Positions 459 to 59,764 of a stretch of 64,000 nucleotides of DNA are shown here, one piece after another. Made by a program: the position numbers and the translations under genes. The DNA comes from a virus (Duplodnaviria; Caudoviricetes). Where the stretch lies: positions 32,001-96,000 of the IMG/VR virus record IMGVR_UViG_3300017766_003100. One strand, given 5' to 3'. The notes beneath the pieces were generated by a model, which saw nothing but the letters and a program-made list of their open reading frames with translations, was not told the DNA's origin and made no database searches. Within the stretch, counting starts at the first letter, position 1. The number at the start of each line of letters is the position of its first letter.

Positions 459-1613
459 ATGTATAATAGAAGACTATTAATATCTGAAGACGAGAAAAAA
501 CACATTAAAAATTTATACGGATTAATATTAGAACAAGAAAATTTACCTGGTGAAAAAATCAAAATTGATTTTGGGGATTTGTATGGTGATGGTAAGTATC
601 TAATTAAGAATAGTAACAAATTCAAAGAAAAATTAGATAGTTCTTTATTACCTTTTGTTCAAAAAAATCCTGGTGTTCCTTTAACTATTAAAGTTCTTGG
701 TGGTGAATCGGCAACACCTAATTATGATTATGAACTAAATGATAATCAGGGGAAACCTGATTTTTATTTGGCTAAAAAAAGAAGAAGTGTTATGGTTGAC
801 TGGTTAACTAATTATTTTAATAATTCAGAAATTGAACCTAAACCTATTGTTGACAACTCACCAAATAAAGAAGGTGTAAATGTATTTAGAGGACGTACTG
901 GTAACGAAGCAAGAGACCGTTTTGTTGACGTGGTTATAAATGCTGAAGCTCCTGGTACTTGTTTAGTTGGATTAAAAATTGAAGTTATTTATGAAAATGG
1001 TAATTCATCACCTGAGTTCCCTTGTAGAGGAGGTTTTATGGAGTATAACAAAATGTTAAAGAAAGAAGTTCCTAGAGTTCATAAATGTGATGAAGCTATA
1101 TTTAACGTTTTATTAAATGATGTAAATATTGGACAAGTAAATCTTAATAATAAAGTTGATGGAGGTAGTAGAAATGGTGTTGTTGAAGTTACAAGAGCTC
1201 AAGCTTTAGAAATTGCTAAACTAGGTAAAAATACTATTGTATTAAGTTTACAATGTGTACTACCTAATTGTCATTCAGATGTTGCTGAAATTAGGATTAC
1301 TAACAAGAATGGAGTACTTTATCATAGTTGCACACCAACACTACAATCAAGAGGTGATAGTAAAGTTAATGACCTTTTAATATTAGATAAATGTGGTACT
1401 AAGATAGTTCAAAGAAGTACGAAAGAAGTTGCAGGAACAGGTGAAACTAAAGTAAAACAAGAATATGGTTCGCAATATTGGGATGCGGTAGCTGCAAATA
1501 AACAACTTAAAAAATTGGCGGATGGTTCTTATGAAGTTTTAACTGATAAACTTGCTGACCCAACTGGTAAACGATATAAAAAAGGTGAGATAATTCCAAA
1601 ACCATCATTTTAA
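459..1613 (+). CDS. Protein with OmpA-C-like (peptidoglycan-binding-like) domain and N-terminal ISEDEK...ILE leader
   Basis: IKVLGGES...N...LAKKRRSV..WL...RFVDVVI follows the OmpA_C pattern; Cys-containing C-terminal half. Confidence 0.5.
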   Translation: MYNRRLLISEDEKKHIKNLYGLILEQENLPGEKIKIDFGDLYGDGKYLIKNSNKFKEKLDSSLLPFVQKNPGVPLTIKVLGGESATPNYDYELNDNQGKPDFYLAKKRRSVMVDWLTNYFNNSEIEPKPIVDNSPNKEGVNVFRGRTGNEARDRFVDVVINAEAPGTCLVGLKIEVIYENGNSSPEFPCRGGFMEYNKMLKKEVPRVHKCDEAIFNVLLNDVNIGQVNLNNKVDGGSRNGVVEVTRAQALEIAKLGKNTIVLSLQCVLPNCHSDVAEIRITNKNGVLYHSCTPTLQSRGDSKVNDLLILDKCGTKIVQRSTKEVAGTGETKVKQEYGSQYWDAVAANKQLKKLADGSYEVLTDKLADPTGKRYKKGEIIPKPSF

Positions 1614-1652: not shown

Positions 1653-2123
1653 TTAACAATAAGGTGGTGAACAACGTTTTTTTCCATCTAATCCAGGTTT
1701 TGTTCCTTTACAAACTTGAACGGCATAACCATTCGCATAAGCACTGGGATAGACTTTAAATTTTGATTTGGCAGCAGTTTTACCTCTTGAACATAGTTTT
1801 GTTCCAGTTTTCTTTTTTCCTTCCATCATAACCATATCTTCTTCATCGTCATAGAACTCATCACTATATTGAGTTTCGTTCATCAGAAAGTCAAATACTT
1901 GGTCTAAGTTTTCTTTTGCCGTTGCAATATGGTCATCAGCCCAATCGTGACCACCTTGAAGTATTTTTTCTACTTCCATTGGGTCTAATTCTAATAACAA
2001 TTGTGCTTGTCTTACCATTTGTTCTAGATTACTGAAAAACATATAGTTTTGTACTTTTCCATAATCTTTTTCGTTAACTATTTTTTTAACGAGTTGGTTG
2101 AGTTGTGATTCAGTTATTCTCAT
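1653..2123 (-). CDS. Hypothetical protein with MRITESQ leader and basic C-terminal DUF5872-like domain
   Basis: C-terminal RGKTAAKSKFKVYPSAYANGYAVQVCKG motif; acidic linker before it. Confidence 0.6.
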   Translation of the reverse strand: MRITESQLNQLVKKIVNEKDYGKVQNYMFFSNLEQMVRQAQLLLELDPMEVEKILQGGHDWADDHIATAKENLDQVFDFLMNETQYSDEFYDDEEDMVMMEGKKKTGTKLCSRGKTAAKSKFKVYPSAYANGYAVQVCKGTKPGLDGKKRCSPPYC

Positions 2124-2339: not shown

Positions 2340-5096
2340 TTACATATTTAATCCATTAGGACCACCTAATGTTATAGCATCAAGTAAATAAATTAATCTA
2401 CCTTGACCATTAGTCCATTGAGGGTGGGGTAAAACTATTTGAGTTATTGTACCACCAGAATCACAAGGACAACAAATATTACAACCGAAATATTCAGTTC
2501 CAGCTGAAATTGGGGGAACTGGTCGATTAGCTGTTCTACAAAAAAGTTGATTTAAATAAAAATTTTGTGGTTCAAATAACGGATGTACATTATCAATTGG
2601 ACAAGAATTAACTACCTGATAACAAACACCATTAGTATCAGTAATGGTTGGGTTGGGTAATTGGAAAAGAAATCCTGTTATTTCAATCCAATCATTTAGA
2701 GTAACTGTAACTTGTGATGCTTCCAATGTATTACAATTAATCAGTGTTAACCCTAATGTTGCATTTGATGTACATTCTTCACAAGTTGTGAAACTTGAAC
2801 CTGATGATACAAAAGATATTGAAGCTGATTGACCACTAAAAGGTTCTATAATTTCAAAACATAACCAATCTGAATTACCAAATTGTGAACGTACAAATTC
2901 ACCAGCCGAATACGTACCTTGTGGGGCAATTAATATACCCCCAATTCCTGATACACATTCAGTACAATAAAATATATCTCGTGTTGTACCAGTACATGTC
3001 TGACAATCTGAATAATGTAACATACTGAGATATTCAGTTATATTTAAAAATTCAGGTCTTGTAATACTTGTTATATTTGTGATTTCACAACATCCGTTTA
3101 AATTGTAATTAAAAAATGTTGTTCCTGTTGATAAATATTCATTTGATGTTGTTTGACCACTAATGAAGTCATTGTAACAACCAAGTTGGAACAAAGCACT
3201 AAATGACCCAAACCATAAATTACCTAAAGTATCTGCTTGTATATCAAAAGGTTGAGTTATACCTATATTAGATAATTCACTACTATAAGTAATTAATAAA
3301 TTATCTGTTAGTGTATCAAATTCATATATTTGATTACAACCGTTGTCGGAAATATATAATCGATTAGTTGATGAATTAACTTTTATCCCATATTGACTAC
3401 TTGAACAATATGGGAAAGAATGTGTGGTAGTACCACTTAATGATAAATCAAATTTTACATAATAATTATTTGTTGTTGATATGTATATAAAATTTCCCCC
3501 ATCGTAAGTAAGCGAGAGTAATGTATCGCTGAATGTGTATGTATTAACTAATGTATATGATGTATCGTAGACCTCAATATTAGTTGATGTTAAAGTATAA
3601 AAAAACGAACCTATTTGTATTATGTCAAGATATGATGAATTTGTAGTACCAAAATCAGTAACAAATGTCATATTATTATAAGCCGTACCACTATAGACTA
3701 ATATAGCATTAATAACCCCACCTAGATGAGCACTCGCAAAATAAAATAGTTGGTCATTTGTGTTATAATAAACTTTGGTTGGTTGTACACCAGTAACACT
3801 TAAATTATTACTAAGAGATAAGTCGTTATAATCAAAAAACGTAATATCAAATACTGAAGGTATAACGTTTGAATAATTTGTAACCGCAATAACCCCATTA
3901 GTTTCATCAATATCTAAACTATAAGGATTATTTAAAACGTTATTAGATATCTCAATAACTGAAGAGGTATTGGTATCAATTTTAGCTATTAGATTATTAT
4001 CTACAAATGGTATAAATGCAAAATCGTTGCTATCAATTTTAAAGTAACGTGAGATACTAAGACCACTTAAACTAAAATAATCAATTATATTAATGGGGCC
4101 ACAAATTTCATATTGTTCACAACTTACAAAGTCATATACCAAACCATAACATTCCAAACAATCTTCACAATTTTGTTGTGGGTCATAATTTGCTAATTCA
4201 CTAATTGTAATTGCACTTGTTGGGGGTACTACATCAGTACTAATTTCGTAACACCCATTACCTAATGATAAATGAGTTGAATCCCCTGGTTGGAATAAAA
4301 CTGATGCCCAAACAATTTCTTCACTATTATTTAAACAATTAATAAGTTTCTTTTTTTCACTCACCAATCCATTACAATAATCACAATCAACACCATCATT
4401 ATTAATCCCTAAATCATTAACATATGTTCCATTTATTACACCAGAACTTAATTCTATTACTACCCCACAATATTGTGTTATTCCTGCTAAATCGGTAAAT
4501 GTTATTAAATGATTGTCAAGACCCGATGATGGTAATGGAATATAATATTCAGTTGAGGATAAACATTCAATTATTCGATACACTAATGGTGAATTATCAA
4601 TACAAGTTTTACAATCAGTATGTGAACTATAACTAGTTACTAATACCTCAAAATTTGGTACTCTTGAAGTAAAACTTTTTAATTCAAAACAACTACTATA
4701 TTGTTGTAACCCACTATCATTAGAAAAATAAATTTCAATAAATAAGACATCCCCAATTGATGGTACTGGTGAAAATTGATTTTTTGGTATAATAATTTCA
4801 CCAATTATTCCATCACAAGAAGTAAATTGTAAATAATCATAAATTTGTGATACACAATCATCACAACCTGTTGATTTTTCAGGACCATATGAATTTACTA
4901 TTATAGTATCTGGAGTAGCACCAGGCTTGGTTAAATTAAAACTATCAACAACGTAACACCCAAATGATACATAACCACTAAATGAATAAACATTACCAAC
5001 TATAAGTTGACTAGAATTATCTTCAATAACTACTTGATACGCTATACATTTATTAGTACACCCACAATCTCTAAGACCTACACTATAAATTGGCAT
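2340..5096 (-). CDS. Cys-rich repeat protein with inserted beta-propeller-like region; probable virion appendage (918 aa)
   Basis: Recurring ~80-aa units ending CxxC (CDDC, CKTC, CDYC, CEDC, CQTC, CEEC); central YVTN/NHL-like blades (PYSLDID, PTKVYY, PFDIQAD..GNLW). Confidence 0.6.
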   Translation of the reverse strand: MPIYSVGLRDCGCTNKCIAYQVVIEDNSSQLIVGNVYSFSGYVSFGCYVVDSFNLTKPGATPDTIIVNSYGPEKSTGCDDCVSQIYDYLQFTSCDGIIGEIIIPKNQFSPVPSIGDVLFIEIYFSNDSGLQQYSSCFELKSFTSRVPNFEVLVTSYSSHTDCKTCIDNSPLVYRIIECLSSTEYYIPLPSSGLDNHLITFTDLAGITQYCGVVIELSSGVINGTYVNDLGINNDGVDCDYCNGLVSEKKKLINCLNNSEEIVWASVLFQPGDSTHLSLGNGCYEISTDVVPPTSAITISELANYDPQQNCEDCLECYGLVYDFVSCEQYEICGPINIIDYFSLSGLSISRYFKIDSNDFAFIPFVDNNLIAKIDTNTSSVIEISNNVLNNPYSLDIDETNGVIAVTNYSNVIPSVFDITFFDYNDLSLSNNLSVTGVQPTKVYYNTNDQLFYFASAHLGGVINAILVYSGTAYNNMTFVTDFGTTNSSYLDIIQIGSFFYTLTSTNIEVYDTSYTLVNTYTFSDTLLSLTYDGGNFIYISTTNNYYVKFDLSLSGTTTHSFPYCSSSQYGIKVNSSTNRLYISDNGCNQIYEFDTLTDNLLITYSSELSNIGITQPFDIQADTLGNLWFGSFSALFQLGCYNDFISGQTTSNEYLSTGTTFFNYNLNGCCEITNITSITRPEFLNITEYLSMLHYSDCQTCTGTTRDIFYCTECVSGIGGILIAPQGTYSAGEFVRSQFGNSDWLCFEIIEPFSGQSASISFVSSGSSFTTCEECTSNATLGLTLINCNTLEASQVTVTLNDWIEITGFLFQLPNPTITDTNGVCYQVVNSCPIDNVHPLFEPQNFYLNQLFCRTANRPVPPISAGTEYFGCNICCPCDSGGTITQIVLPHPQWTNGQGRLIYLLDAITLGGPNGLNM

Positions 5097-6580: not shown

Positions 6581-6589
6581 ATAAATATC
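6581..6589 (-). promoter_or_regulatory. RTATTTAT putative late-promoter motif
   Basis: GATATTTAT on the minus strand 15 nt upstream of ATG 6565. Confidence 0.6.
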
Positions 6590-8177
6590 AATTAATTCGG
6601 ATATTTTGATTAAGTATCAAACTTTCGGCATTGTTCAGTAAAGTTTCAATGTCTTCCAACCTTTGACCATTACCACTTGCGGTTTTAGCTGGTTTAATTA
6701 TTGCAATAGGATGTACGTGTCCTTCCAAGAATGCAAACATCTTTCTTAATAATTCAATTAATACTTCACCCCTTACAGAAGAATAAGTTAAATTTTGTAT
6801 TGAATTTTTACCTCTAACAAATGCGTTTTGGGGTATTCCGTAGATTGTATCTTGTAGATTAATTTTTGTTTTTTTACTTGTAGAGTCTTGAGATAGCAAA
6901 TATATTTTTTGTGCTCCCATAATACCATAACTTACTGGTTCAGATTTGAATGACGATGGAAATATTTGTTGTTTAAGTAAATCATATTGAGACCCATATA
7001 TAGGCTTACCTCCTTTATTACTCCACACTAAAAAATAACCTGATTCTTTAGAACTTTTGTCTAAACTAATTACTTGTCTAAATTTACTAAAATTAACAAG
7101 TTCGGCACTATCATTAGTACTTGTTGTGGGATTAAATTTATTTCCTCTTTCATAAGTTTCTTTTGAAGGGGTAACAACAAATGGGAAAGCATCCTTGAAT
7201 GAATTTTGGTCTGTTGACGTATAACCACTATATTGTAAGAAACCATCAAAAACACCTTTTATAAATGTATTGATAATATATGTAGTTTCTTCAAAAGTGT
7301 TACCAGTAATGTCAATTTTACTATCAGTTTCAATTAGGTCAGTACCTATTGTAAGTTGAGTAATAGTTTGAGAATCAAAATTAGATGTATTGAACTTTGT
7401 ACTATTTTCATTCCATTTGTAAAGTTTAACATACCCCGTAAACATATTTGGAGTAACATCATTTTCCAAATTATTAATATGCCATACAACAACTTTTTTA
7501 ACTGATAAAATAACTTCTTTTAAGAAAGTTGTTAATTGTATTGGGTCTTGTACTTCTTGTATTGGGAAGTATGATAATTGTAGAAAAGCTCTTTTTGAAT
7601 TAGGTGTTGGTAATCTACTATAAACTAATTCTGGTGTTTTACCAGCACGTATTAAAACATCATTTTCTTTAATAATGACATCAGCGGTACCTCTACCCAA
7701 TATACCAACATCTTCAGGTTTTGGGAATATACCTTCAGTACTACCACCTTCTGTAATTATATAACTACCATCAGTATTTCTTAGAGATAAACCTTGTTCA
7801 TACCTAGTACCAGTTGCTAAAAACTTTTTTGCCCCTTGAAAGTTTTCAAAAGGACTTAATAAAGGACTTGAAAAAGGTCCTTGAATATAAAATTGATTCT
7901 CTCTTTTAAATTTTTTGTTCATATAGATTATATGAACATATTCATTTATCTGAGGTGTTTGATTTAAAAAGAAGGGTAATAGGGGTAAGAATAGAATTGG
8001 GTCTTTACTAGTCCATTTCATTTTCTCTTCATCCCAATCAGGAATAGCTCCAATGATTGCGGTATAATCGTCAGTTTCAGGTATTACGCGAAGTCTACCT
8101 AACATCATTGGGTCTTGGTTATCAAATACCGTACCCGCAAAAATTATTTGATATTCATTAGGCGCTGTATCGTTCAT
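6588..8177 (-). CDS. Baseplate central spike/hub protein, gp5/VgrG-like N-terminal OB fold
   Basis: N-terminal GTVFDNQDPMMLGRLRV (gp5 OB-fold signature); C-terminal HVHP resembling the HxH metal-binding spike tip. Confidence 0.7.
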   Translation of the reverse strand: MNDTAPNEYQIIFAGTVFDNQDPMMLGRLRVIPETDDYTAIIGAIPDWDEEKMKWTSKDPILFLPLLPFFLNQTPQINEYVHIIYMNKKFKRENQFYIQGPFSSPLLSPFENFQGAKKFLATGTRYEQGLSLRNTDGSYIITEGGSTEGIFPKPEDVGILGRGTADVIIKENDVLIRAGKTPELVYSRLPTPNSKRAFLQLSYFPIQEVQDPIQLTTFLKEVILSVKKVVVWHINNLENDVTPNMFTGYVKLYKWNENSTKFNTSNFDSQTITQLTIGTDLIETDSKIDITGNTFEETTYIINTFIKGVFDGFLQYSGYTSTDQNSFKDAFPFVVTPSKETYERGNKFNPTTSTNDSAELVNFSKFRQVISLDKSSKESGYFLVWSNKGGKPIYGSQYDLLKQQIFPSSFKSEPVSYGIMGAQKIYLLSQDSTSKKTKINLQDTIYGIPQNAFVRGKNSIQNLTYSSVRGEVLIELLRKMFAFLEGHVHPIAIIKPAKTASGNGQRLEDIETLLNNAESLILNQNIRIN

Positions 8178-10323: not shown

Positions 10324-10698
10324 TTATTTTTTCATTTTATATTGGTTGTCTGACTTAGTAATATCTCTCTCCATTAAATCTTTAATAATATCATCATCCA
10401 TATTAATATCTGAAATAGAAAATGATTCTTTTGTAGAGTTTGTTTTTTCCCAAATTGAAGCTTGTAATTTAGAAAGAGATAGTTTTTTTTCAACACAATC
10501 ATTGATTATTTTTTGTTGTTTTTCAATAACAGGACCTATAAGAGTCATATCTTCAGGTTCTTTCATCATTGTCAACATTTTGTTTTGTATTCTAATTGCA
10601 GTATTTCTCTGTTCCACAAGTTCATTGTAGATTTCTTGCATCAAGGACAAAATAGATTCCTTAGATAAATTAATTTCTTTTTTTAATGGTCTAGGCAT
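10324..10698 (-). CDS. Coiled-coil hypothetical protein (124 aa)
   Basis: Helical heptad-rich ORF; ATATTTAT motif at 10703-10710 upstream. Confidence 0.6.
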   Translation of the reverse strand: MPRPLKKEINLSKESILSLMQEIYNELVEQRNTAIRIQNKMLTMMKEPEDMTLIGPVIEKQQKIINDCVEKKLSLSKLQASIWEKTNSTKESFSISDINMDDDIIKDLMERDITKSDNQYKMKK

Positions 10699-10710
10699 AT
10701 AAATAAATAT

Positions 10711-30527: not shown

Positions 30528-33500
30528 ATGGGTTCTTTTAGTTTATCAGGTGGTGTTGAAGTTTTTGGTTTTATTTCTCCCAGTAATACCACAGACCAAT
30601 ATCCAGTTATTGACCCCTTATATGGTATTGATGGTTTAAGAAACGTTAATACTTTAAGTGACTTAAATTTAATTCCAACACTTAGAAGAAGGGCTGGTAT
30701 GATTGTGGGTGTAAGTGGAGGAACAACATACTATAAACTTAATTCCCCACCTTGGTCTTTAACATTATCAGATTGGACTATATTCAATTCTGGTAGTGGA
30801 GGTGATTTTCTTCCATTGTCAGGTGGGACTGTTAGTGGTGGAACTATATTCACAAATGGATTAACAGCAAACACATTTTCAGCAACCACATATTTGGGGT
30901 TACCCTCTGACATTTATGTGTCAGGATTCACCTATTTGGATAATATATTGACAATACAAAGAAGTTCGGGAAATCCGAATTTGTTTGTTACAATTAATGA
31001 TTTCACTGGATTAACAATTAATGGTAATTTAAATGTCACTGGAAATACAATTGTTGATGGTATTAGTGCCAATACTATTTCCGCTTCAACATATCTTAAT
31101 TTACCTATTGATGTATTCGTAACTGGTGGAACATACGATAATGTAACTGGTATTGCAACATTTACAAATAACACTGGTGGAACATTTAATATCAGTGGTT
31201 TATTCACAGGGTCAACTGATGTATTTGTTACAGGTGGAACTTATAGTGATAATACATTTACATTCACAAATAACACTGGTGGAACTTTTAATGTTTCATT
31301 TAATTCTGTATCAGGTTTAACTATAAATGGCGATTTAAATGTAACTGGAAATACGATTGTTGATGGTATTACGGCAAATACAATATCAGCAACAACATAT
31401 CAAAATTTACCAATTGACCCAGATACATATATAACCGCATTTACATACAATAATAATACATTAACCATTGATGATAATTCAGGGAATACATTTAACACAA
31501 CAATTAATGATTTCACTGGATTAACAATTAATGGAGATTTAAGTGTTACTGGTTCTTCCGTAGTTAATAGTTTAACCGCAAATACAATATCAGGTAGTTC
31601 ATACACAATTACAAATTCAACTCAAAATAATTCATTAGATGAATTTTTAGTTATAGATGGTAATGGAGATTTTTTTACTAGAAATTTCAATAGCATTAAT
31701 AAACTTGATAATACAATTACCGTTGCTTTAAGTGGTGGTAGTGCGGATTTTACATCCATTGAAAGTGCTGTAAATAGTATAACTGGTTCGTCTTCAGCTA
31801 ATACTTATGTTGTTCAAGTTGCTGGTGGAGTTTATTATGAAAATCCATTCACAATACCAACGTGGGTTTCAGTTGTTGGTGAAAGTTCAGTATCAACGAT
31901 AATTGAAGCAATTGACCCTTCTCAAACATTAATTAAATTAAGTGACCAATCGGCATTATTTGATTGTCAAGTACAAGGATGTACGGGAATTGGAGTTTCA
32001 GCAATATTATATTCATCATCAACTACACCACAATCAAGTGCAATCTCTTATGTTGAGAATGTAAGATTTGGTTCTAATTATACTCACGCCAAAGTTGTCG
32101 CTTCAAGTGGTGCTAACATCATTATGCAATGTTCCAATGTTAAGTATGGTGGTTACCCATTCACTATTGGTTTTTATGCAACAAATGATGGTAGTGGTAT
32201 TGGTAGAATGCAATTAAGAAATGTAACATCAACTAATGGTGGAATTGTTACAACAACAGGATTGATTTTTGCTAAGGCTGATGCTCAAAGTTGTGGATTT
32301 ATTGTTAATGGTTGTTTATTAACTAAAGCTGTAGGTGCTGCCGCGGGTACTGGATTTTATGTTGAAAATGGTGGGTTCTTAAGATTAACCGCTGTTAATT
32401 TTCAAAGATGGTCAGTAGGTATTGACGCACCTCAAATTGGTTCTGCTCCAAGTATAGATGCAATTGCTCTTAATTTTGAAAACAATACAATTGATGTTAA
32501 TATTGTACATTCAGGTACAACTGGTAAAATACAAGGTACGGATAATTTTTTAAAGACATTAATAAACATTAATGCCCCAATTTATGAAGTTAACCAAGAC
32601 CCAAGACAAATAACTGTAGCTAAAAAAGGTGGTGATTTTTCATCAATTAAATCAGCCGTTGATTATTTAATTGCGTCAGGTAACACATCATTATCAAATA
32701 GATTTGTTATTACTGTAGGACCTGGTTTTTTTTATGAAAATGAAATTGATTTAACTCAAACACCTTATGTAAGTATTGTTGGTAGTAATATACAAACAAC
32801 ACAAATTCTTCCAAATTCAAGTACACAACATATCTTGAAAATAGGTCAAAATAATGAAGTTTCATTTTTATCATTCTCTGGTGCAGGTTTAGGATATGCC
32901 GCAATTTATTGTTATGATATTGGGGATTTTGGTCAAGCACATAAGTGTTCATTCACAGATTGTGATACCAATGTATGGGTTGAATCGGTAACACAAGATA
33001 CCAATTTTTATGGGGAGTATTTAGATTTCAATGGTTCTTATACTTACGGAACGAAAGTAATTGCAACAAATGGTTTTGTTGCTCTTGCAAATATGGAAAA
33101 CTATTATAATTTCCCAATAGGAACTGGTATAACATATTGTAATTATGCTACAGGTAGTGGAGCAACATTAAGTATATTCGTTGGTGATAATCAATCAAAT
33201 GGTGTATCAGGTTCAACAGCTTATTACATACAAGATGGTGCTGAATTAAACGCTTCGACTATAACCATAGATGGATTTACATATGGTATTAGAAATCCAA
33301 ATATTGGTGATGGGGTAAGATTTGATGTTGACAACGCAAGTGTTATTAATGGTGAATGGGATTTATATATTGAGAGGTCAACAACTTTTGGTACATTTGG
33401 GGGTAGCTCCAATCACCAAAAAATATTCACAAATAGTTCAGACGTTTATTGGGTGTTTTTGGATATTGATGATGGTGAATTAGATATAACTAGAAAAGCA

Positions 33501-46230: not shown

Positions 46231-46813
46231 AATTTTTAATGGGATTACATTTTTGATATTTTTTATCATTAAATTTTTCTCCTTTCAATTGTGTCACCAT
46301 AATAATGTCATATAATCTTTTACCTGAAAAATTTTTTTGTATTTTAATTAGATTCGTATATTCAAGGTCATTATTAAATGTTATTAACTTTAAACAAATT
46401 ACCCTCTCCGACCAATTAAAATTTTGTATGTAATTAGTTATTTTACCCATACTTGAAAAAAGTAAATCAATTCCTTCAGTTGTTGTTGGGTCAACAATAT
46501 TTGGGTTATTTTCGTATTCAGGTTCTTTTTTTCTATCTAATCTTTGTAACCAATGGTCTGAAGGTTCAATAGTAAACCCCATTTTACTATTGGTATCATA
46601 ATAATATTCATCACCATTATTTTGATTTATTTGATTATAATGAGATTCAATATAATCTAACACATCATTCTCTTTGTCCACATCAATTTTAACTGTGGCA
46701 ATACCTTCGGTGAGGATTAGATATTTTTTTAATTCATAAAAACTAATTTGTTCAACTATTGTTTTTTGAGTAAAAAATTCCTCAATTAATATTTTTCTTA
46801 TCAAATTTCTCAT
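46229..46813 (-). CDS. Hypothetical protein with MRNLIRKILIEE leader; possible BECR-fold RNase-like domain
   Basis: SDHWLQRLDR motif and terminal IIMVT strand resemble H-x3-R-x3-R toxin RNases (weak). Confidence 0.5.
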   Translation of the reverse strand: MRNLIRKILIEEFFTQKTIVEQISFYELKKYLILTEGIATVKIDVDKENDVLDYIESHYNQINQNNGDEYYYDTNSKMGFTIEPSDHWLQRLDRKKEPEYENNPNIVDPTTTEGIDLLFSSMGKITNYIQNFNWSERVICLKLITFNNDLEYTNLIKIQKNFSGKRLYDIIMVTQLKGEKFNDKKYQKCNPIKN

Positions 46814-46818
46814 ATGAA

Positions 46819-46847
46819 TATAAATACTAATTAAATGAGTATTTATA
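46819..46847. promoter_or_regulatory. Back-to-back divergent RTATTTAT motifs
   Basis: GTATTTATA on minus at 46819-46827 and on plus at 46839-46847. Confidence 0.65.
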
Positions 46848-54748: not shown

Positions 54749-55375
54749 TTATCTTGGTTTTACCATATTATAGATATATTCAGCAGCTTTATCAATGTTA
54801 TCAACACCCTTTCTCGTTAATTCAGTTCTAATTGTGTACAACATATATTTAAATCTAGATGCTGAAGGATTGTCACCATAACCTTTACGTGTTTTCACAT
54901 CCATAGGTAATAATTTTTTTTGTTGTAATTCTCTAACTTTTCTTACTGCAAACTCATCGGCAACAGCTTCATATTTCGCCATAGATTCGGCTGCTTCATC
55001 TAAAGGTATTTCGTTTAAATAAAGACCCATCATTTTTCCCTCACCATATTTTTTAAATTGATATTGATGTGCTAATTCGTGAAAGATAATAAAAAGTGTT
55101 TGAGCAATAGCGTTACGGCCATATATAGACATATACTTCGTATCTAAAACAATACTATTAATTACTAATTTATTATGTAAAGCTAACCCCATAGGGCCTG
55201 ATAAGTTTTCAAACGAAACTTTTTTACAATCAGTTTTTTCAAATATTGATTTCACTTCATCAATTAGTTCATCACTTAATTTTAATTCGTTTTTTAAGGT
55301 TTCAAGAAATTCATCCAAACCTTCAGTAGCTTCTAAAAGAAGTTTATATTGTGATTCTGTTATTATTATTTTCAT
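54749..55375 (-). CDS. Zincin-like metallopeptidase with MKIIITESQ leader
   Basis: IIFHELAHQYQ (HExxH) and downstream YEAVADEFA. Confidence 0.7.
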   Translation of the reverse strand: MKIIITESQYKLLLEATEGLDEFLETLKNELKLSDELIDEVKSIFEKTDCKKVSFENLSGPMGLALHNKLVINSIVLDTKYMSIYGRNAIAQTLFIIFHELAHQYQFKKYGEGKMMGLYLNEIPLDEAAESMAKYEAVADEFAVRKVRELQQKKLLPMDVKTRKGYGDNPSASRFKYMLYTIRTELTRKGVDNIDKAAEYIYNMVKPR

Positions 55376-56496
55376 TAGATTACATATATTTGTCTTGGCA
55401 TAGCTTGGAATTTCTTTACCTTGTTTAGATTTTCAGCAATTAAAGCTTCTCTTTCCATTACCTTTTCAGGTCTTAATCTACTTAGTCTACCTTCGGTACC
55501 AATTAATTCTTCAACTAATTTAGTTTTTTCATCCTTACCTTCAGTGGCTAAAGATTGATAATCCATTGTAAGTTCACTATCTGGTGTTTTAATGTTACCA
55601 CTAAACTTACCTCTAACTTTAGATAAGGTTTCTTTGGCTGTAGCAAAAAACCATTTACGTACCCAAATTTGTGCGGGGTTATTTAAATCAACCCAACTTA
55701 TTTTATCAAAAGGAACATCAGAAGGTAATTTAATAATATCAGGATTCTTTTTTAAACAATCATCTCTGTCAGCACCATCAACTTCATAATACCAATACCA
55801 TACTCTCCCTTTCATAAGTGTATTGTTACCAAAGTCAAACTTACCACCAGGTGTTTGCATTAAGTGAACGGCTTTTTTACCATCAGGTAATGCTGTTACA
55901 CGATAAGTCAAATCCCCCGCAATAATTCTTCTTTGGATATTAATTTCTTGCATTCTTAATAACATATCAAATGCTGGCATCATAAAGTATGAACCAGTAT
56001 AACCCATTTGTGAATAACCTGCAGGACCACCTAAACCCGCACCACCCAAAGCACCAAAACTCCAAGGGTCAAATAATAAATTATTTAATTCACCAGGTGT
56101 AAACCATAAAAGTTCATTTAATTCTCTACCCGCAGGTATTTCATATATTTGTTGGCCAGGTACAAGTTGTATGTAATCTTTTTTCATCACATTATCACCA
56201 CCTGCTTGTAAACCAACTATTTTAGAATAGGCATAAGAATATCGGTCTTCAAAATCAAAACTTTTGGTAATGAATGCTTTGGCTAAAGATTGGGTGTCTA
56301 AATTAAGACCATATAATGAAGTCCATTGTGATTCAATTAACCAATCTTGTATATATTGAGAATAATCCTCAATAGATAATTCTAATAAAGAGTCTAACAT
56401 TTCATCTTCCAATTCTATACTTCTTAGAGGAGCACCTAATAGGTGTCTTAATTTGGTATATAGTTTGGTTCTTTCTGGTTCGGCAATTATTGACAT
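55375..56496 (-). CDS. Neck/head-completion protein (T4 gp13-like)
   Basis: KLRHLLGAP..SIELEDE N-terminus; WVRKWFFA.AKE.L.KVRGKF. Confidence 0.75.
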   Translation of the reverse strand: MSIIAEPERTKLYTKLRHLLGAPLRSIELEDEMLDSLLELSIEDYSQYIQDWLIESQWTSLYGLNLDTQSLAKAFITKSFDFEDRYSYAYSKIVGLQAGGDNVMKKDYIQLVPGQQIYEIPAGRELNELLWFTPGELNNLLFDPWSFGALGGAGLGGPAGYSQMGYTGSYFMMPAFDMLLRMQEINIQRRIIAGDLTYRVTALPDGKKAVHLMQTPGGKFDFGNNTLMKGRVWYWYYEVDGADRDDCLKKNPDIIKLPSDVPFDKISWVDLNNPAQIWVRKWFFATAKETLSKVRGKFSGNIKTPDSELTMDYQSLATEGKDEKTKLVEELIGTEGRLSRLRPEKVMEREALIAENLNKVKKFQAMPRQIYVI

Positions 56497-56510
56497 AATT
56501 AGTTTTTAAT

Positions 56511-56520
56511 TATAAATATC
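56511..56520 (-). promoter_or_regulatory. RTATTTAT putative late-promoter motif
   Basis: GATATTTATA on the minus strand 14 nt upstream of ATG 56496. Confidence 0.6.
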
Positions 56521-59248
56521 ACCAACAATCAATCTCTTTAAAATCATCCACTTTAATAGGTTCAGTATTCAATTGAAGTTCATTAGTGTTTCTATCATAG
56601 ATGTATGATATTGCATTTTTGTCAATAATTTTAAAACGAATACTTAATCGACTTTCACTACAAGTTTTTTGTCCTTTGTTTGACCAATAAAGTTTAATAT
56701 GTTGGATTGGCACTACAACATTATTTTCAAAGAAAATACCTGCAATATTATTTCTAATTTTTTCTAAGAAACTTATAGCTATAGGATGGTCAAAAAGTTC
56801 AAGGTGTAAATAATTGATTATTTGATTATATACATCTAAGTGAGTTTCCTTAATTTTTTTAATTATTTTACTTCGTTTGAAAATTGAGAAGAATTCTGAA
56901 AGATAACTATCAACATTAGTATTCATCATTTTTACTTCAAATTTGTCACCCTTTTTGAAGATTACTTTGTCATTATAATAAAAATCTGACTTAGCAATTA
57001 AATCCGCTTTAATTGGATTTGTTTGTTTCATATTGTTAGTGATACATTTAACTAAATCATTTATAACTTCATCCAAACCTTTTTGACCACTTTTAACCAT
57101 TTCAACAACTTCAGCAAAATTACGTCTTTCAAACTTGTCACAAGTATATTTTAATTCTAATGACGTTTTAAATTCACCCATATAATCACCCTCCAAACTT
57201 GTTTCATAATTTGAATAAGCCTTTTCTCTAACTTGACTTAAAAAATTATCAAGGTTTTCAGTTTTAATATCAGATTTATTTTTTAATCTTTTCAATCTAA
57301 TTTCAGTTTCAGTATTATCAAATGTTGGGTCTGTTATAAATTTGGCAATAGTTTTGATAAAATTACCAGGTAAATCATTTTTTAATGCTAATTCTAATAT
57401 TTTATAAACTATACCCCTACCAAAGACTATGTGTCTAACTTGTCCTTTATCTTTTAATCTTGTGGACATTTGTGGATAATAAAAATTAATTATTGTATCT
57501 GCAGCTTTTATTATTTCTTCTTTTTCTTCACCTTCAATACTATCAATTACTCGTTGGAAATGACAATAGATATTATCAACTTTTTTGAAATTACATAGTT
57601 GTTCAATTAAATTTTCTTCTTTTTGAAAGATAATTGCTTCTATAAGTTTTTTTTGTTCTTCAGTTATTATTATTTTTTTAAGTTTTGATTCCGTAATTAA
57701 TTTGTTTAATCTTAAACTTGGGGATTTAAACTTAATTTTTTCAGTTTTAAAAATATAAGAATATCTTTGTAAAGATTGAGTTCCTTCATCTTTAATTTCA
57801 ATATTATCAAAATCAAAGAATATGTAGTTATCTTCATTATCAATGAAAGCAAATATTTGAATATTTTCAGGTTTATATTTGTTTTTACTTTTAAAAATAT
57901 AATTTAATTTACCATCCATTTCTTCTTCAAATAAATCTTTTGTTGGTTTCACTTGAATATTTTTGGACACCCCATTTTTGGTTACCATCATATCTTGTCC
58001 ATTGTATTTGTCTCTAATATCACCATCACAATATCTTAATACATCTAAATTTTTATATTTAGAGTTTAAAAGTTTAACGGCCAAATTTTCACGTTCAGAA
58101 CCTTGGTCTAATGTCCCTTTTTTGGTTTGAGGATTCATTATTACGTCTGCTAAAGTTTTTGTAAATTTACCCTCGTCACCAAATAAAACATTTTTCATTC
58201 GGTTCATCCAAACGCCAAAATCCAAATTATCCCTATTGTATTTTTCAAAAAACTCCAATATTTTTTTACTAACAATAACATTTGCATCAAACCAATTTAC
58301 TACTGACCATTCACCAACACCACCTCTTTGACTTACAGCATATTTCCCACCAATTACACCATAGTTAGTTTTACAATCATTTGTATCAATTTTACCATAA
58401 CAGGGAGATTCAATATGATTGTTAGCTGAATAATTTTTAATAATTTCAGGAGAACATTTTGGGTATACTTTTGATAACATTTCTTGAATAAACTTATAGT
58501 TAACCCTTCCGTTTGGTAATAAAGGTTCAGTTTGTTCAGTTATAACTTTTTTAGAAGTTATTGATTCTTTTAGTTTTGTTTTTAGTTTTGATAAATAAAC
58601 ATCATTAACGAATTCCCAATTCACAACATCCCAAAACCTTTTAATATATTCATCTCTTTTACTTTGATATTTCAAATAATAGGCGTGTTCCCATAAATCC
58701 AATCCCAATAAAGGATAACCACCATCAATATCATTCATTTGAGGATTGTCTTGATTTGGGGTTGTCATAATTTTCAGTCTATTGTTTTTGGTTAATACCA
58801 ACCAAGCCCAACCTGACCCAAATCTTCCAATAGATTCTTCTTCAAATTTTTTCTTAAATTCTTTGTAAGAACCAAATTCTTTATTTATTTTGGTTAATAT
58901 TTCTCCTTTGATTGTTTGTTTCTCAGGAGATAACATTTTCCAAAATAATGAGTGGTTGTAAGCACCGCCACCATTATTTCTAATTACTTTTGGATATCTT
59001 GTAATTGATTTAATTATATCTTCCAATTCAACATTACCATAATTCTTTTTTGATAAGGCATCGTTAAGTTTCTTAACATATCCTTTATAGTGGTTGTTAT
59101 AATGAACATTCATTGTTTTTACATCAATGAATCTTGTAAGGGAATCATAACCATATGGTAATTTATCAATACCAATCTTTTTGGCTTCAGTTATTAAACT
59201 TTCACCTAATAATATAGTTTCTTTTAATAGTTCTAATTTCTTTTCCAT
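56519..59248 (-). CDS. sod: Fe/Mn superoxide dismutase fused to two putative PD-(D/E)XK-like domains (909 aa)
   Basis: LPYGY..L...HYNNHY...NNGGGAYNHSLFW...FGSGWAWL...NQDNP...LDLWEHAYY; later E..A...D...GQD...IQVK and KADL...FEVK motifs. Confidence 0.85.
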   Translation of the reverse strand: MEKKLELLKETILLGESLITEAKKIGIDKLPYGYDSLTRFIDVKTMNVHYNNHYKGYVKKLNDALSKKNYGNVELEDIIKSITRYPKVIRNNGGGAYNHSLFWKMLSPEKQTIKGEILTKINKEFGSYKEFKKKFEEESIGRFGSGWAWLVLTKNNRLKIMTTPNQDNPQMNDIDGGYPLLGLDLWEHAYYLKYQSKRDEYIKRFWDVVNWEFVNDVYLSKLKTKLKESITSKKVITEQTEPLLPNGRVNYKFIQEMLSKVYPKCSPEIIKNYSANNHIESPCYGKIDTNDCKTNYGVIGGKYAVSQRGGVGEWSVVNWFDANVIVSKKILEFFEKYNRDNLDFGVWMNRMKNVLFGDEGKFTKTLADVIMNPQTKKGTLDQGSERENLAVKLLNSKYKNLDVLRYCDGDIRDKYNGQDMMVTKNGVSKNIQVKPTKDLFEEEMDGKLNYIFKSKNKYKPENIQIFAFIDNEDNYIFFDFDNIEIKDEGTQSLQRYSYIFKTEKIKFKSPSLRLNKLITESKLKKIIITEEQKKLIEAIIFQKEENLIEQLCNFKKVDNIYCHFQRVIDSIEGEEKEEIIKAADTIINFYYPQMSTRLKDKGQVRHIVFGRGIVYKILELALKNDLPGNFIKTIAKFITDPTFDNTETEIRLKRLKNKSDIKTENLDNFLSQVREKAYSNYETSLEGDYMGEFKTSLELKYTCDKFERRNFAEVVEMVKSGQKGLDEVINDLVKCITNNMKQTNPIKADLIAKSDFYYNDKVIFKKGDKFEVKMMNTNVDSYLSEFFSIFKRSKIIKKIKETHLDVYNQIINYLHLELFDHPIAISFLEKIRNNIAGIFFENNVVVPIQHIKLYWSNKGQKTCSESRLSIRFKIIDKNAISYIYDRNTNELQLNTEPIKVDDFKEIDCW

Positions 59249-59252
59249 AAAA

Positions 59253-59262
59253 TATAAATATC
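59253..59262 (-). promoter_or_regulatory. RTATTTAT putative late-promoter motif
   Basis: GATATTTATA on the minus strand 4 nt upstream of ATG 59248. Confidence 0.55.
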
Positions 59263-59362
59263 TTCTAAAAAATAAGTTTTAAATTGTATTTTTATTAATT
59301 TTGTGAACCAAAGTATAACTTTATAAGTTAATTATATTATTTCATCAAAAAATTAAAAAGTT

Positions 59363-59764
59363 ATGTCCCACAATATTGAAAATGGAGTTAAATCCAACAA
59401 TGGATTAAATACTGAGAAAAAATTTTCAGATTTAACAAATCTAAAAAAGACTTCAAATAATGAAAAACCTAAATTTATTAACTCGTATGGTAATGAACAA
59501 ATTATTGATTTTGATTTTCATACTACAAAAAATGATGTAAAAATATTCATTGATGTTTGTAGTACATTTAGAAGTGATAGAGCAAAACAAAAAGGTTATA
59601 ATGCTTTACTATATAAAATGTTTATTAGTACTAATTGTAAGTTCTATATTGGTGTGGGTTCATTAGTTGAAAATGGTTCTATTGTAAATCCAAAGAACAT
59701 AGAAGGTATTGATGGAATATATCATATTGATGAATTATCCAAATTGATTAATGAACATTATTAA
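59363..59764 (+). CDS. Small PD-(D/E)XK-like endonuclease (133 aa)
   Basis: G..TEKK...IDF...IFIDVCSTFRSDRAKQ resembles type II restriction-enzyme catalytic cores. Confidence 0.5.
   Translation: MSHNIENGVKSNNGLNTEKKFSDLTNLKKTSNNEKPKFINSYGNEQIIDFDFHTTKNDVKIFIDVCSTFRSDRAKQKGYNALLYKMFISTNCKFYIGVGSLVENGSIVNPKNIEGIDGIYHIDELSKLINEHY

Follow-up and report, generated by a model that had tools for sequence, protein, structure and literature searches.

Why would a phage gene join a superoxide dismutase (SOD) to two further domains through linkers that resemble the leaders of other phage proteins? The gene in question lies at positions 56519–59248, on the minus strand, of a 64,000-nucleotide stretch of DNA (positions 32,001 to 96,000 of the IMG/VR record IMGVR_UViG_3300017766_003100; hereafter the window), which comes from a large T4-like freshwater phage and has a G+C content of approximately 28%. 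The 909-codon reading frame, running from 59248 to 56519, is stop-free, as an earlier note on this DNA had claimed, and encodes a predicted 105-kDa protein (P0001) composed of a leader, the SOD, a linker, module 2, a second linker, and module 3. We propose, with a probability of about 0.6, that in this T4-like jumbo phage the protein serves as a cargo polyprotein, which is loaded into the capsid and cut by a protease. The data directly support an intact gene, an SOD of the Fe/Mn family, a PD-(D/E)XK fold for module 2, conserved motifs, a modular make-up, and a gp21-family protease in the lineage. We infer the targeting, cleavage, packaging, ejection, and enzyme activities.

The SOD occupies residues 22–228 (58565–59185, minus strand) and has a predicted mature mass of 24.5 kDa. 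Both Pfam domains of the Fe/Mn family score above their thresholds: Sod_Fe_N (PF00081) at residues 27–107 (E 8e-20, 71.5 bits against a cut-off of 27) and Sod_Fe_C (PF02777) at residues 114–216 (E 7e-40, 135.6 bits against 20.9). The metal ligands H49, H99, D184, and H188 are all present and align with the ligands of solved SODs. The Mn-type positions are occupied by GGG (residues 93–95), which precedes the second histidine, and by Q166 within NQD (165–167). The closest solved relatives are Mn and cambialistic SODs of Staphylococcus (S. aureus) and Bacillus (E 2e-61, approximately 50% identity), and the Mn model of NCBIfam outscores the Fe model by 201 to 158 bits, both being under their equivalog cut-offs (363 for Mn). 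The description in the earlier note of an intact enzyme with all ligand motifs, GGG, and NQD, of Mn or cambialistic type, is therefore borne out: the SOD looks intact and Mn-type by sequence, from which the actual metal is not readable. The similarity to cellular Mn SODs (S. aureus SodA and SodM, Bacillus SodA) covers the whole fold, the four ligands, and the Mn-type Gly and Gln, whereas the phage protein has, in addition, a leader of 21 residues and 680 further residues at its C-terminus, and falls short of the equivalog score.

The borders of the domains are marked by (I/L)-x-E motifs. The N-terminal leader (residues 1–21; 59186–59248, minus strand) contains three of them, LKE10, LGE16, and ITE21, and is predicted to be a 2.4-kDa capsid-targeting propeptide removed at ITE21↓A22 (the arrow marks the predicted cut). 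Linker 1 (residues 229–238; 58535–58564, minus strand) is bounded by LKE228↓S and ITE238↓Q. Linker 2 (residues 521–537; 57638–57688, minus strand), with the sites ITE520↓S, ITE530↓E, and LIE537↓A, is an internal copy of an MK-IIITE-type leader. Motifs singled out in the earlier note lie exactly where it had placed them (ITEQ at 58532–58543, IQVK at 57947–57958, ITES at 57686–57697, and FEVK at 56930–56941), and the repeated ITE motifs that it had described between the domains are present, with (I/L)-x-E conserved in position at all three junctions across the relatives sampled. Of the 17 [IL]xE sites in the protein, nine fall in the 103 residues that separate the domains, whose borders were defined independently (binomial P = 3e-5). 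The total of 17 is not raised relative to shuffled sequences (12.6 ± 3.0).

Conservation was assessed separately at each junction. Ahead of the SOD, a glutamate is located nine positions before LPY in 81 of 81 distinct relatives, with I or L at P3 in 78 of them and at least eight residue types at P2. Past the SOD fold, 94 of 98 distinct relatives have an [IL]xE motif within 24 residues, as compared to 32% of control windows; the motif is at +14/+15 in 74, and the remaining four relatives have V-x-E or T-x-E. Between modules 2 and 3, all 15 full-length relatives (53–84% identity) contain both L-x-[TNV]-E↓S and [LIV]xE↓A. The middle site of this junction, ITE530, is lost in the more distant group, and the [IL]xE located just inside module 3 (LIE549) is not conserved among the 15. 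The second linker is also where the structure prediction loses confidence, with a predicted local distance difference test (pLDDT) score of 58 at residues 518–526 and 65 at 534–543, as opposed to 90–94 in the domains.

The modules exist outside the fusion. Pfam gave no match in residues 238–909, and a HMMER scan of 1.8 billion representatives with this segment returned 148 matches in two independent groups, covering residues of approximately 240–525 and 525–909, many of which are stand-alone proteins of 250–430 residues. The claim of the earlier note that the linkers are copies of leaders, and its suggestion that relatives might carry the domains as separate leader-bearing genes, were both upheld, since homologues of modules 2 and 3 start with leaders of the MK-I-I-I-T-E-(S/E)-Q type. 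The leader of stand-alone module 3, MK-I-I-I-T-E-E-Q-Y, aligns residue for residue with the internal K-I-I-I-T-E-E-Q-K. An (I/L/V)-x-E motif is present in the first 30 residues of 32 of the 33 complete stand-alone module 3 proteins (control 45%) and 22 of the 26 complete stand-alone module 2 proteins (control 33%). Shorter SODs of the phage type are abundant, either as stand-alone proteins of 219–262 residues or fused behind an HExxH module (approximately 360 residues), on contigs of up to 310 kb. In all 95 complete ones, a leader ending in (I/L/V/M)-x-E directly precedes (A/M)-K-K-I-G-I-(D/E), and many of the stand-alone SODs come to their end within a few residues of the predicted post-SOD cut, on its upstream side.

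At least three classes of leader recur, including the MK-IIITE-SQ type and the MAIKGHKERALLRRG type. In other lineages, stand-alone homologues of modules 2 and 3 (P0129, P0140, P0156, P0161, and others) display a second, quite different class, beginning M-A-I-K-G-H-K-E-R-A-L-L-R-R-G, and a third, ending Y-S-K-L-R-R-T-V-I-N-E. Each of the differing classes ends with (L/I)-x-E, which suggests that they are lineage-specific targeting sequences.

The order of the modules is variable. More than 760 long SOD fusions were retrieved from metagenomes, on contigs of up to approximately 300 kb. With D2 and D3 denoting modules 2 and 3, the arrangement SOD-D2-D3 was recorded 19 times, SOD-D3 13 times, SOD-D2-X and SOD-D2-D2 10 times each, and SOD-D2 8 times. 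In 59 relatives a small HExxH module precedes the SOD (HExxH-SOD-D3), D3 alone was found 68 times and D2 alone 30 times, and D3-X and X-D3 are also present; these counts are the product of the searches made and not a census. In one module 3 protein (P0147, 400–1180), a long C-terminal extension matches the Pfam PcfJ-like family (E 1e-7), and other module 3 proteins are extended too, so module 3 is also paired with partners besides the SOD.

A protease of the family that cuts at this motif in T4 is encoded in the lineage. The T4 prohead protease gp21 cleaves after L/I-X-E (PMC9026906, PMC3012670). Contigs that overlap the left end of the window (75–86% identity, 529-residue protein at 6588–8177) carry a head module, and on four related IMG/VR contigs, which are syntenic with the window, it includes matches to Pfam Peptidase_S77, the gp21 family (E of approximately 1e-24; 81 bits, the cut-off being 27), and to Pfam Gp23 (E of approximately 1e-64). 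In one relative, the head genes are arranged as terminase, portal, protease, scaffold, and capsid protein; the scaffold protein ends with ...NPQFMRMKDLM..., and the protease shares 33% of its residues with gp21 of RB3, a relative of T4. An example of a gp21-like protease of the lineage is the 239-residue product of L039:9328–10047. A single 98.7-kb contig combines the protease and capsid genes with an SOD fusion that is 79% identical over residues 1–531. Thus, the lineage is T4-like, with a protease of the gp21 family and a capsid protein of the gp23 type, and the comparison with T4 gp21 drawn in the earlier note is more than an analogy. The five IMG/VR contigs retrieved with the SOD gene contain no match to Peptidase_S77, Gp23, or Peptidase_S78; these fragments end short of the head module, and head genes were detected only on contigs reaching upstream of the window start. 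A search with the 918-residue protein at 2340–5096 found no related locus.

The capsid protein may provide a cleavage site of its own. A near-identical 197-kb contig, on which two window proteins are identical, starts within the capsid gene, and its product contains LINE↓ATS approximately 18 residues ahead of a conserved VRR motif. The site is close to the T4-type FLTE↓AEI stretch, which we take to be the gp23 maturation site; the alignment is gapped there, so that LINE↓ATS is a predicted site. The gp23-type major capsid protein (P0263; L042:3–1877 and L039:12008–13864) has approximately 620 residues, approximately 100 more than that of RB3, and contains large insertions, one of them with a Cys-rich stretch (CPAC..C).

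The window encodes the start of a tail sheath protein, a helicase of the SNF2 type, and a family-B DNA polymerase. The gene that follows immediately downstream of the SOD gene specifies a neck/adaptor-like structural protein. The motif TATTTATA is located 4 nucleotides upstream of the ATG of the SOD gene (59253–59260, minus strand), and copies precede the neck-like gene (56511–56518, minus strand) and two other genes by 5–15 nucleotides. Overall, the copies near gene starts, which include those at 46819–46826 and 10698–10705 (minus strand) and at 46840–46847 (plus strand), are positioned 0–15 nucleotides ahead of the start codon on the coding strand. The motif is not enriched in the whole window (13 copies found, 18 expected), and its position near gene starts is what is suggestive of a late promoter.

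Module 2 (residues 239–520; 57689–58534, minus strand; 32.8 kDa) consists of an N-terminal half without a known fold and a PD-(D/E)XK nuclease-like core at residues 380–513 (57710–58111, minus strand). The AlphaFold2 model of the module has a pLDDT of 94, and the part of it corresponding to the core (model residues 143–276) matches almost exclusively restriction-endonuclease-like proteins. In Foldseek, I-Ssp6803I came first (E 8e-4, probability 1.0) and several Hjc resolvases ranked behind it. In VIA-align, the Z-scores were 8.0 for I-Ssp6803I (108 residues), 7.8 for Hjc, and 6.9 for NhoI, followed by tRNA-splicing endonucleases, HhaI, and DpnI, and nearly all of the top 50 matches have the restriction-endonuclease-like fold. 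An alignment of 37 homologues shows no variation at E387, G409, and K434 and retains D413, D419, and Q432 in at least 90% of the sequences. The conserved residues are positioned on the expected elements, with the glutamate in the first helix, the aspartate before the second strand, and QxK in the third strand, where Q replaces the usual D/E. The C-terminal half of module 2 therefore has, in the predicted structure, a clear PD-(D/E)XK fold, in agreement with the earlier proposal, based on the D...GQD...IQVK stretch, that this domain is nuclease-like (E387, D419, and Q432-x-K434 are conserved). The core superposes on I-Ssp6803I, archaeal Hjc, and type II restriction enzymes with Z-scores of 6.9–8.0 over 102–108 residues, and differs from these nucleases by the lack of detectable sequence similarity, the extra 140-residue N-terminal half, and the Q in place of D/E.

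Module 3 (residues 538–909; 56522–57637, minus strand; 43.8 kDa) begins with a helical part containing two conserved cysteines, which is followed by an α/β part with E682, K747-x-D749, and E771-x-K773. E682, K747, D749, E771, and K773 are invariant in 39 homologues, and the AlphaFold2 model (pLDDT 90.5) has an order of strands and helices compatible with a PD-(D/E)XK core. The fold matches reach Z-scores of just 4.2 for Hjc, 4.1 for NhoI, and 4.3 for the alkaline exonuclease LHK-Exo (model residues 154–369). The nuclease-like character that the earlier note had assigned to this domain therefore stands for the motif E682/D749/E771-x-K773, whereas its fold matches to nucleases are weak, and we describe module 3 as putatively nuclease-like, by its motif. 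The shared motif pattern and Z-scores of approximately 4 are also all that it has in common with the nucleases matched by module 2. Searches of Pfam, NCBIfam, PADLOC, and PDB sequence profiles returned nothing for either module, and PHROGs returned one sub-threshold match. The possibility that modules 2 and 3 are paralogues was rejected on the basis of a profile–profile comparison (probability 0.2).

By analogy with the internal proteins of T4, a pathway from synthesis to delivery can be proposed. The protein would be made late in infection, and its N-terminal leader would take it into the scaffolding core of the prohead. There, the gp21-family prohead protease would strip the leader at ITE21↓A, and the same protease would cut the linkers at LKE228↓S and/or ITE238↓Q and at ITE520↓S, ITE530↓E, and/or LIE537↓A. 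The head, by then filled with DNA, would contain three separate proteins, namely an Mn-type SOD of 24.5 kDa, a protein of 33 kDa with a PD-(D/E)XK nuclease core, and one of 44 kDa with a D...ExK motif; the predicted by-products are the 2.4-kDa leader and short linker peptides. The products may protect the virion, or they may enter the host together with the ejected DNA, where the SOD would clear superoxide and the nuclease-like proteins would act on the nucleic acid of the host or a competitor. We favor this pathway because the modules exist elsewhere as genes with leaders of their own and are shuffled among many orders; because all three junctions keep I, L, or V at P3 and E at P1, with P2 free, and the lineage encodes a relative of gp21, which in T4 cuts after (L/I)-x-E; because the capsid protein of the 197-kb contig has a predicted site of a similar kind; because model confidence is low in the linker joining modules 2 and 3 and high in the domains; and because the SOD gene adjoins a structural gene, with TATTTATA upstream of both. 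The reading of the earlier note, in which one packaged precursor gives rise to an antioxidant enzyme and two nuclease-like effectors, is supported by the computational tests other than the fold searches for module 3.

Several points weigh against the proposed pathway. Cleavage of the fusion protein and its presence in the virion are predictions from sequence. The [IL]xE motif is short and frequent in a proteome rich in K, E, I, and L, with 32–45% of random windows of 24–30 residues containing one, and the leader-like linkers could be relics of gene fusion. The protease gene of the window phage itself is located outside the 64-kb window, so that the protease is seen only in relatives with 75–86% identity. 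There is no close cultured relative, and the similarity to phage records in GenBank is confined to the SOD. The fold of module 3 gave no significant match in Foldseek searches of the PDB, wide VIA-align searches, clusters of the AlphaFold database (AFDB), the ESM Atlas (by shape or features), or BFVD, the sole match being one uncharacterised marine-phage homologue. Finally, it would have to be explained how the phage DNA withstands active nucleases packed beside it, for instance because the DNA is modified or because the nucleases depend on a metal or are specific.

The main rival is a stable, uncleaved three-domain enzyme, either cytoplasmic or virion-associated, in which the linkers are leftovers of fusion or helical spacers and the activities are joined on one chain. 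We consider it unlikely, and it nevertheless draws on the inferential status of the cleavage, on the frequency with which [IL]xE arises by chance in the controls, and on the retention of the fusion in relatives down to 53% identity, which implies that the fused state is itself selected. A spacer, however, would not hold P3 and P1 fixed and P2 free at set positions over 81–98 distinct relatives. Neither does it explain why the modules are found alone and in many orders, each with its own leader, why stand-alone SODs end near the predicted cut, or why the lineage encodes a protease for exactly the (L/I)-x-E motif.

The cargo could also be packaged and processed as proposed without modules 2 and/or 3 being nucleases; they might bind nucleic acids, serve as non-catalytic proteins built on a restriction-endonuclease-like scaffold, or inhibit host defenses as T4 IPI does. 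The replacement of D/E by Q in module 2, the missing confident fold match of module 3, and the danger that an active packaged nuclease would pose to the phage genome speak for this alternative, as does the fact that the internal proteins of T4 include an inhibitor of a restriction enzyme as opposed to enzymes (PMC3012670). Yet the acidic and lysine residues are invariant in diverse homologues of both modules, as expected of an active site, and the structures to which module 2 is matched are those of homing endonucleases, resolvases, and restriction enzymes with catalytic activity. We therefore regard this alternative as improbable, more so than the uncleaved enzyme. In a 120-kb relative (G001), open reading frames at approximately 35899, 74868, 110343, 111010, and 117241 contain, by eye, N-terminal motifs resembling those of DNA methyltransferases (SPPY, FxGxG). 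If the motifs are real, heavy self-methylation could explain how the phage genome is spared from a restriction-like cargo.

The weakest alternative, an artefact in which three adjacent genes were joined by a chimeric contig, a missed stop, or a frameshift, is already refuted within contig-level data: single contigs from three freshwater metagenome runs (three samples and studies) each cover all 3 kb without a single difference or gap, at word depths of 26–104, the identical 909-residue protein was called on contigs from four Logan runs, and 19 retrieved relatives have the same three-module frame. In this comparison, which settled the concern of the earlier note about the soundness of the assembly, Logan contigs of the four runs were placed on window positions 56400–59400, and the fourth run covered the stretch piecewise without differences; several of the four runs are possible sources of the window DNA and hence not all are independent of it. 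What speaks for an artefact is a 231-residue protein on a 1.9-kb contig (P0264), which is 98% identical to residues 1–228 and then diverges and stops just past the SOD fold, showing that truncated variants or local errors exist; it may be a natural truncation, a frameshift, or a local assembly error. At window positions 58600–58725, the contig depth is several-fold higher in metagenome runs, because short contigs of other organisms share a conserved stretch of the SOD, and the increase is not a feature of the phage. No RNA runs contained the SOD-gene stretch, which was found in DNA runs only.

Other genes of the phage group have similar leaders. In the neighborhood of the SOD gene, at window positions 54749–55375 on the minus strand, a 208-residue HExxH protein (SprT-like below threshold, E 0.001) carries a leader of the MK-IIITE-SQ type that is near-identical to the internal linker of the SOD gene. 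The HExxH module fused to SODs and this neighbor have only the motif region in common (BLASTP E 0.035), both are SprT-like below threshold, and homology between them is not established. Similar amphipathic leaders ending in (I/V)-x-E, such as M-R-I-T-E-S-Q-L and M-K-K-I-V-R-L-T-E-S-D-L, occur on otherwise unrelated proteins, encoded in the window at 1653–2123 (minus strand), 459–1613 (plus strand), and 46229–46813 (minus strand), at L042:2712–4213, and in G001 open reading frames 83930, 98850, 116275, and 116714. Together they look like a genome-wide set of candidate head cargo.

The closest known parallel is the capsid targeting sequence (CTS) of T4, in which N-terminal leaders of approximately ten residues, ending in the gp21 motif, load unrelated proteins into the head (PMC9026906, PMC3012670). 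The system described here shares with the CTS and the gp21-processed internal proteins of T4 (IPI, IPII, IPIII, and Alt) the gp21-family protease and gp23-type capsid protein in the lineage, the short leaders that close with (L/I)-x-E at the N-termini of unrelated proteins, and a hypervariable cargo behind a conserved leader (PMC3012670, PMC9026906). It differs from T4, whose internal proteins are single and small, in that a single precursor links several cargo modules and repeats the leader and the cut site internally. The cargo consists of enzymes (SOD, nuclease-like, and HExxH), there are several classes of leader, and an informal comparison found no apparent resemblance to the CTS past the cut motif. 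The present analysis contributes the three-module polyprotein, the statistics of its junctions, and the shuffling of modules.

In the giant phages phiKZ, 201phi2-1, and SPN3US, divergent homologues of gp21 process many head proteins by cutting behind the Glu of a short motif, some propeptides have multiple sites, and large enzymes are packaged and ejected (PMC5694885, PMC9026906). Their motif is, however, (A/S)-x-E, and the propeptides often exceed 100 residues; the release of several independent enzymes from one precursor is not described in PMC5694885 and PMC9026906. In contrast to phiKZ-like phages, the lineage studied here is T4-like, with a capsid protein that matches Pfam Gp23 directly. 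A virion-associated SOD is known from the chlorovirus PBCV-1, where a Cu/Zn SOD is expressed late, carried in the particle, and thought to lower superoxide early in infection (PMC7019647). The PBCV-1 enzyme belongs to an unrelated family (Cu/Zn as opposed to Fe/Mn) of a eukaryotic virus and involves neither a polyprotein nor a leader with a protease motif. In our literature searches, we came across neither a packaged Fe/Mn SOD in a phage nor a polyprotein of this kind.

We speculate, with somewhat less than even confidence, that the principle is general among T4-like jumbo phages of fresh and marine waters: the head protease would cut polyproteins of chained, interchangeable cargo enzymes (SOD, restriction-like nucleases, and an HExxH peptidase), so that one loading event would bring a fixed-ratio enzyme kit into the capsid and then into the host. 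If the proposed processing is correct, T4 capsid targeting would extend from single small internal proteins to multi-enzyme precursors, and head maturation proteases would double as polyprotein processors in a large and environmentally widespread family. The fusion would be a phage counterpart of the polyproteins of RNA viruses and a modular injected toolkit that includes a packaged antioxidant enzyme. A packaged Mn-SOD would suggest selection by oxidative stress at entry, or by oxidative damage to virions in sunlit water, and packaged restriction-like nucleases would suggest an immediate attack on the DNA of the host or of rivals. The modules of leader plus cut site would then constitute a natural, transferable signal for the loading and release of foreign proteins in T4-type capsids.

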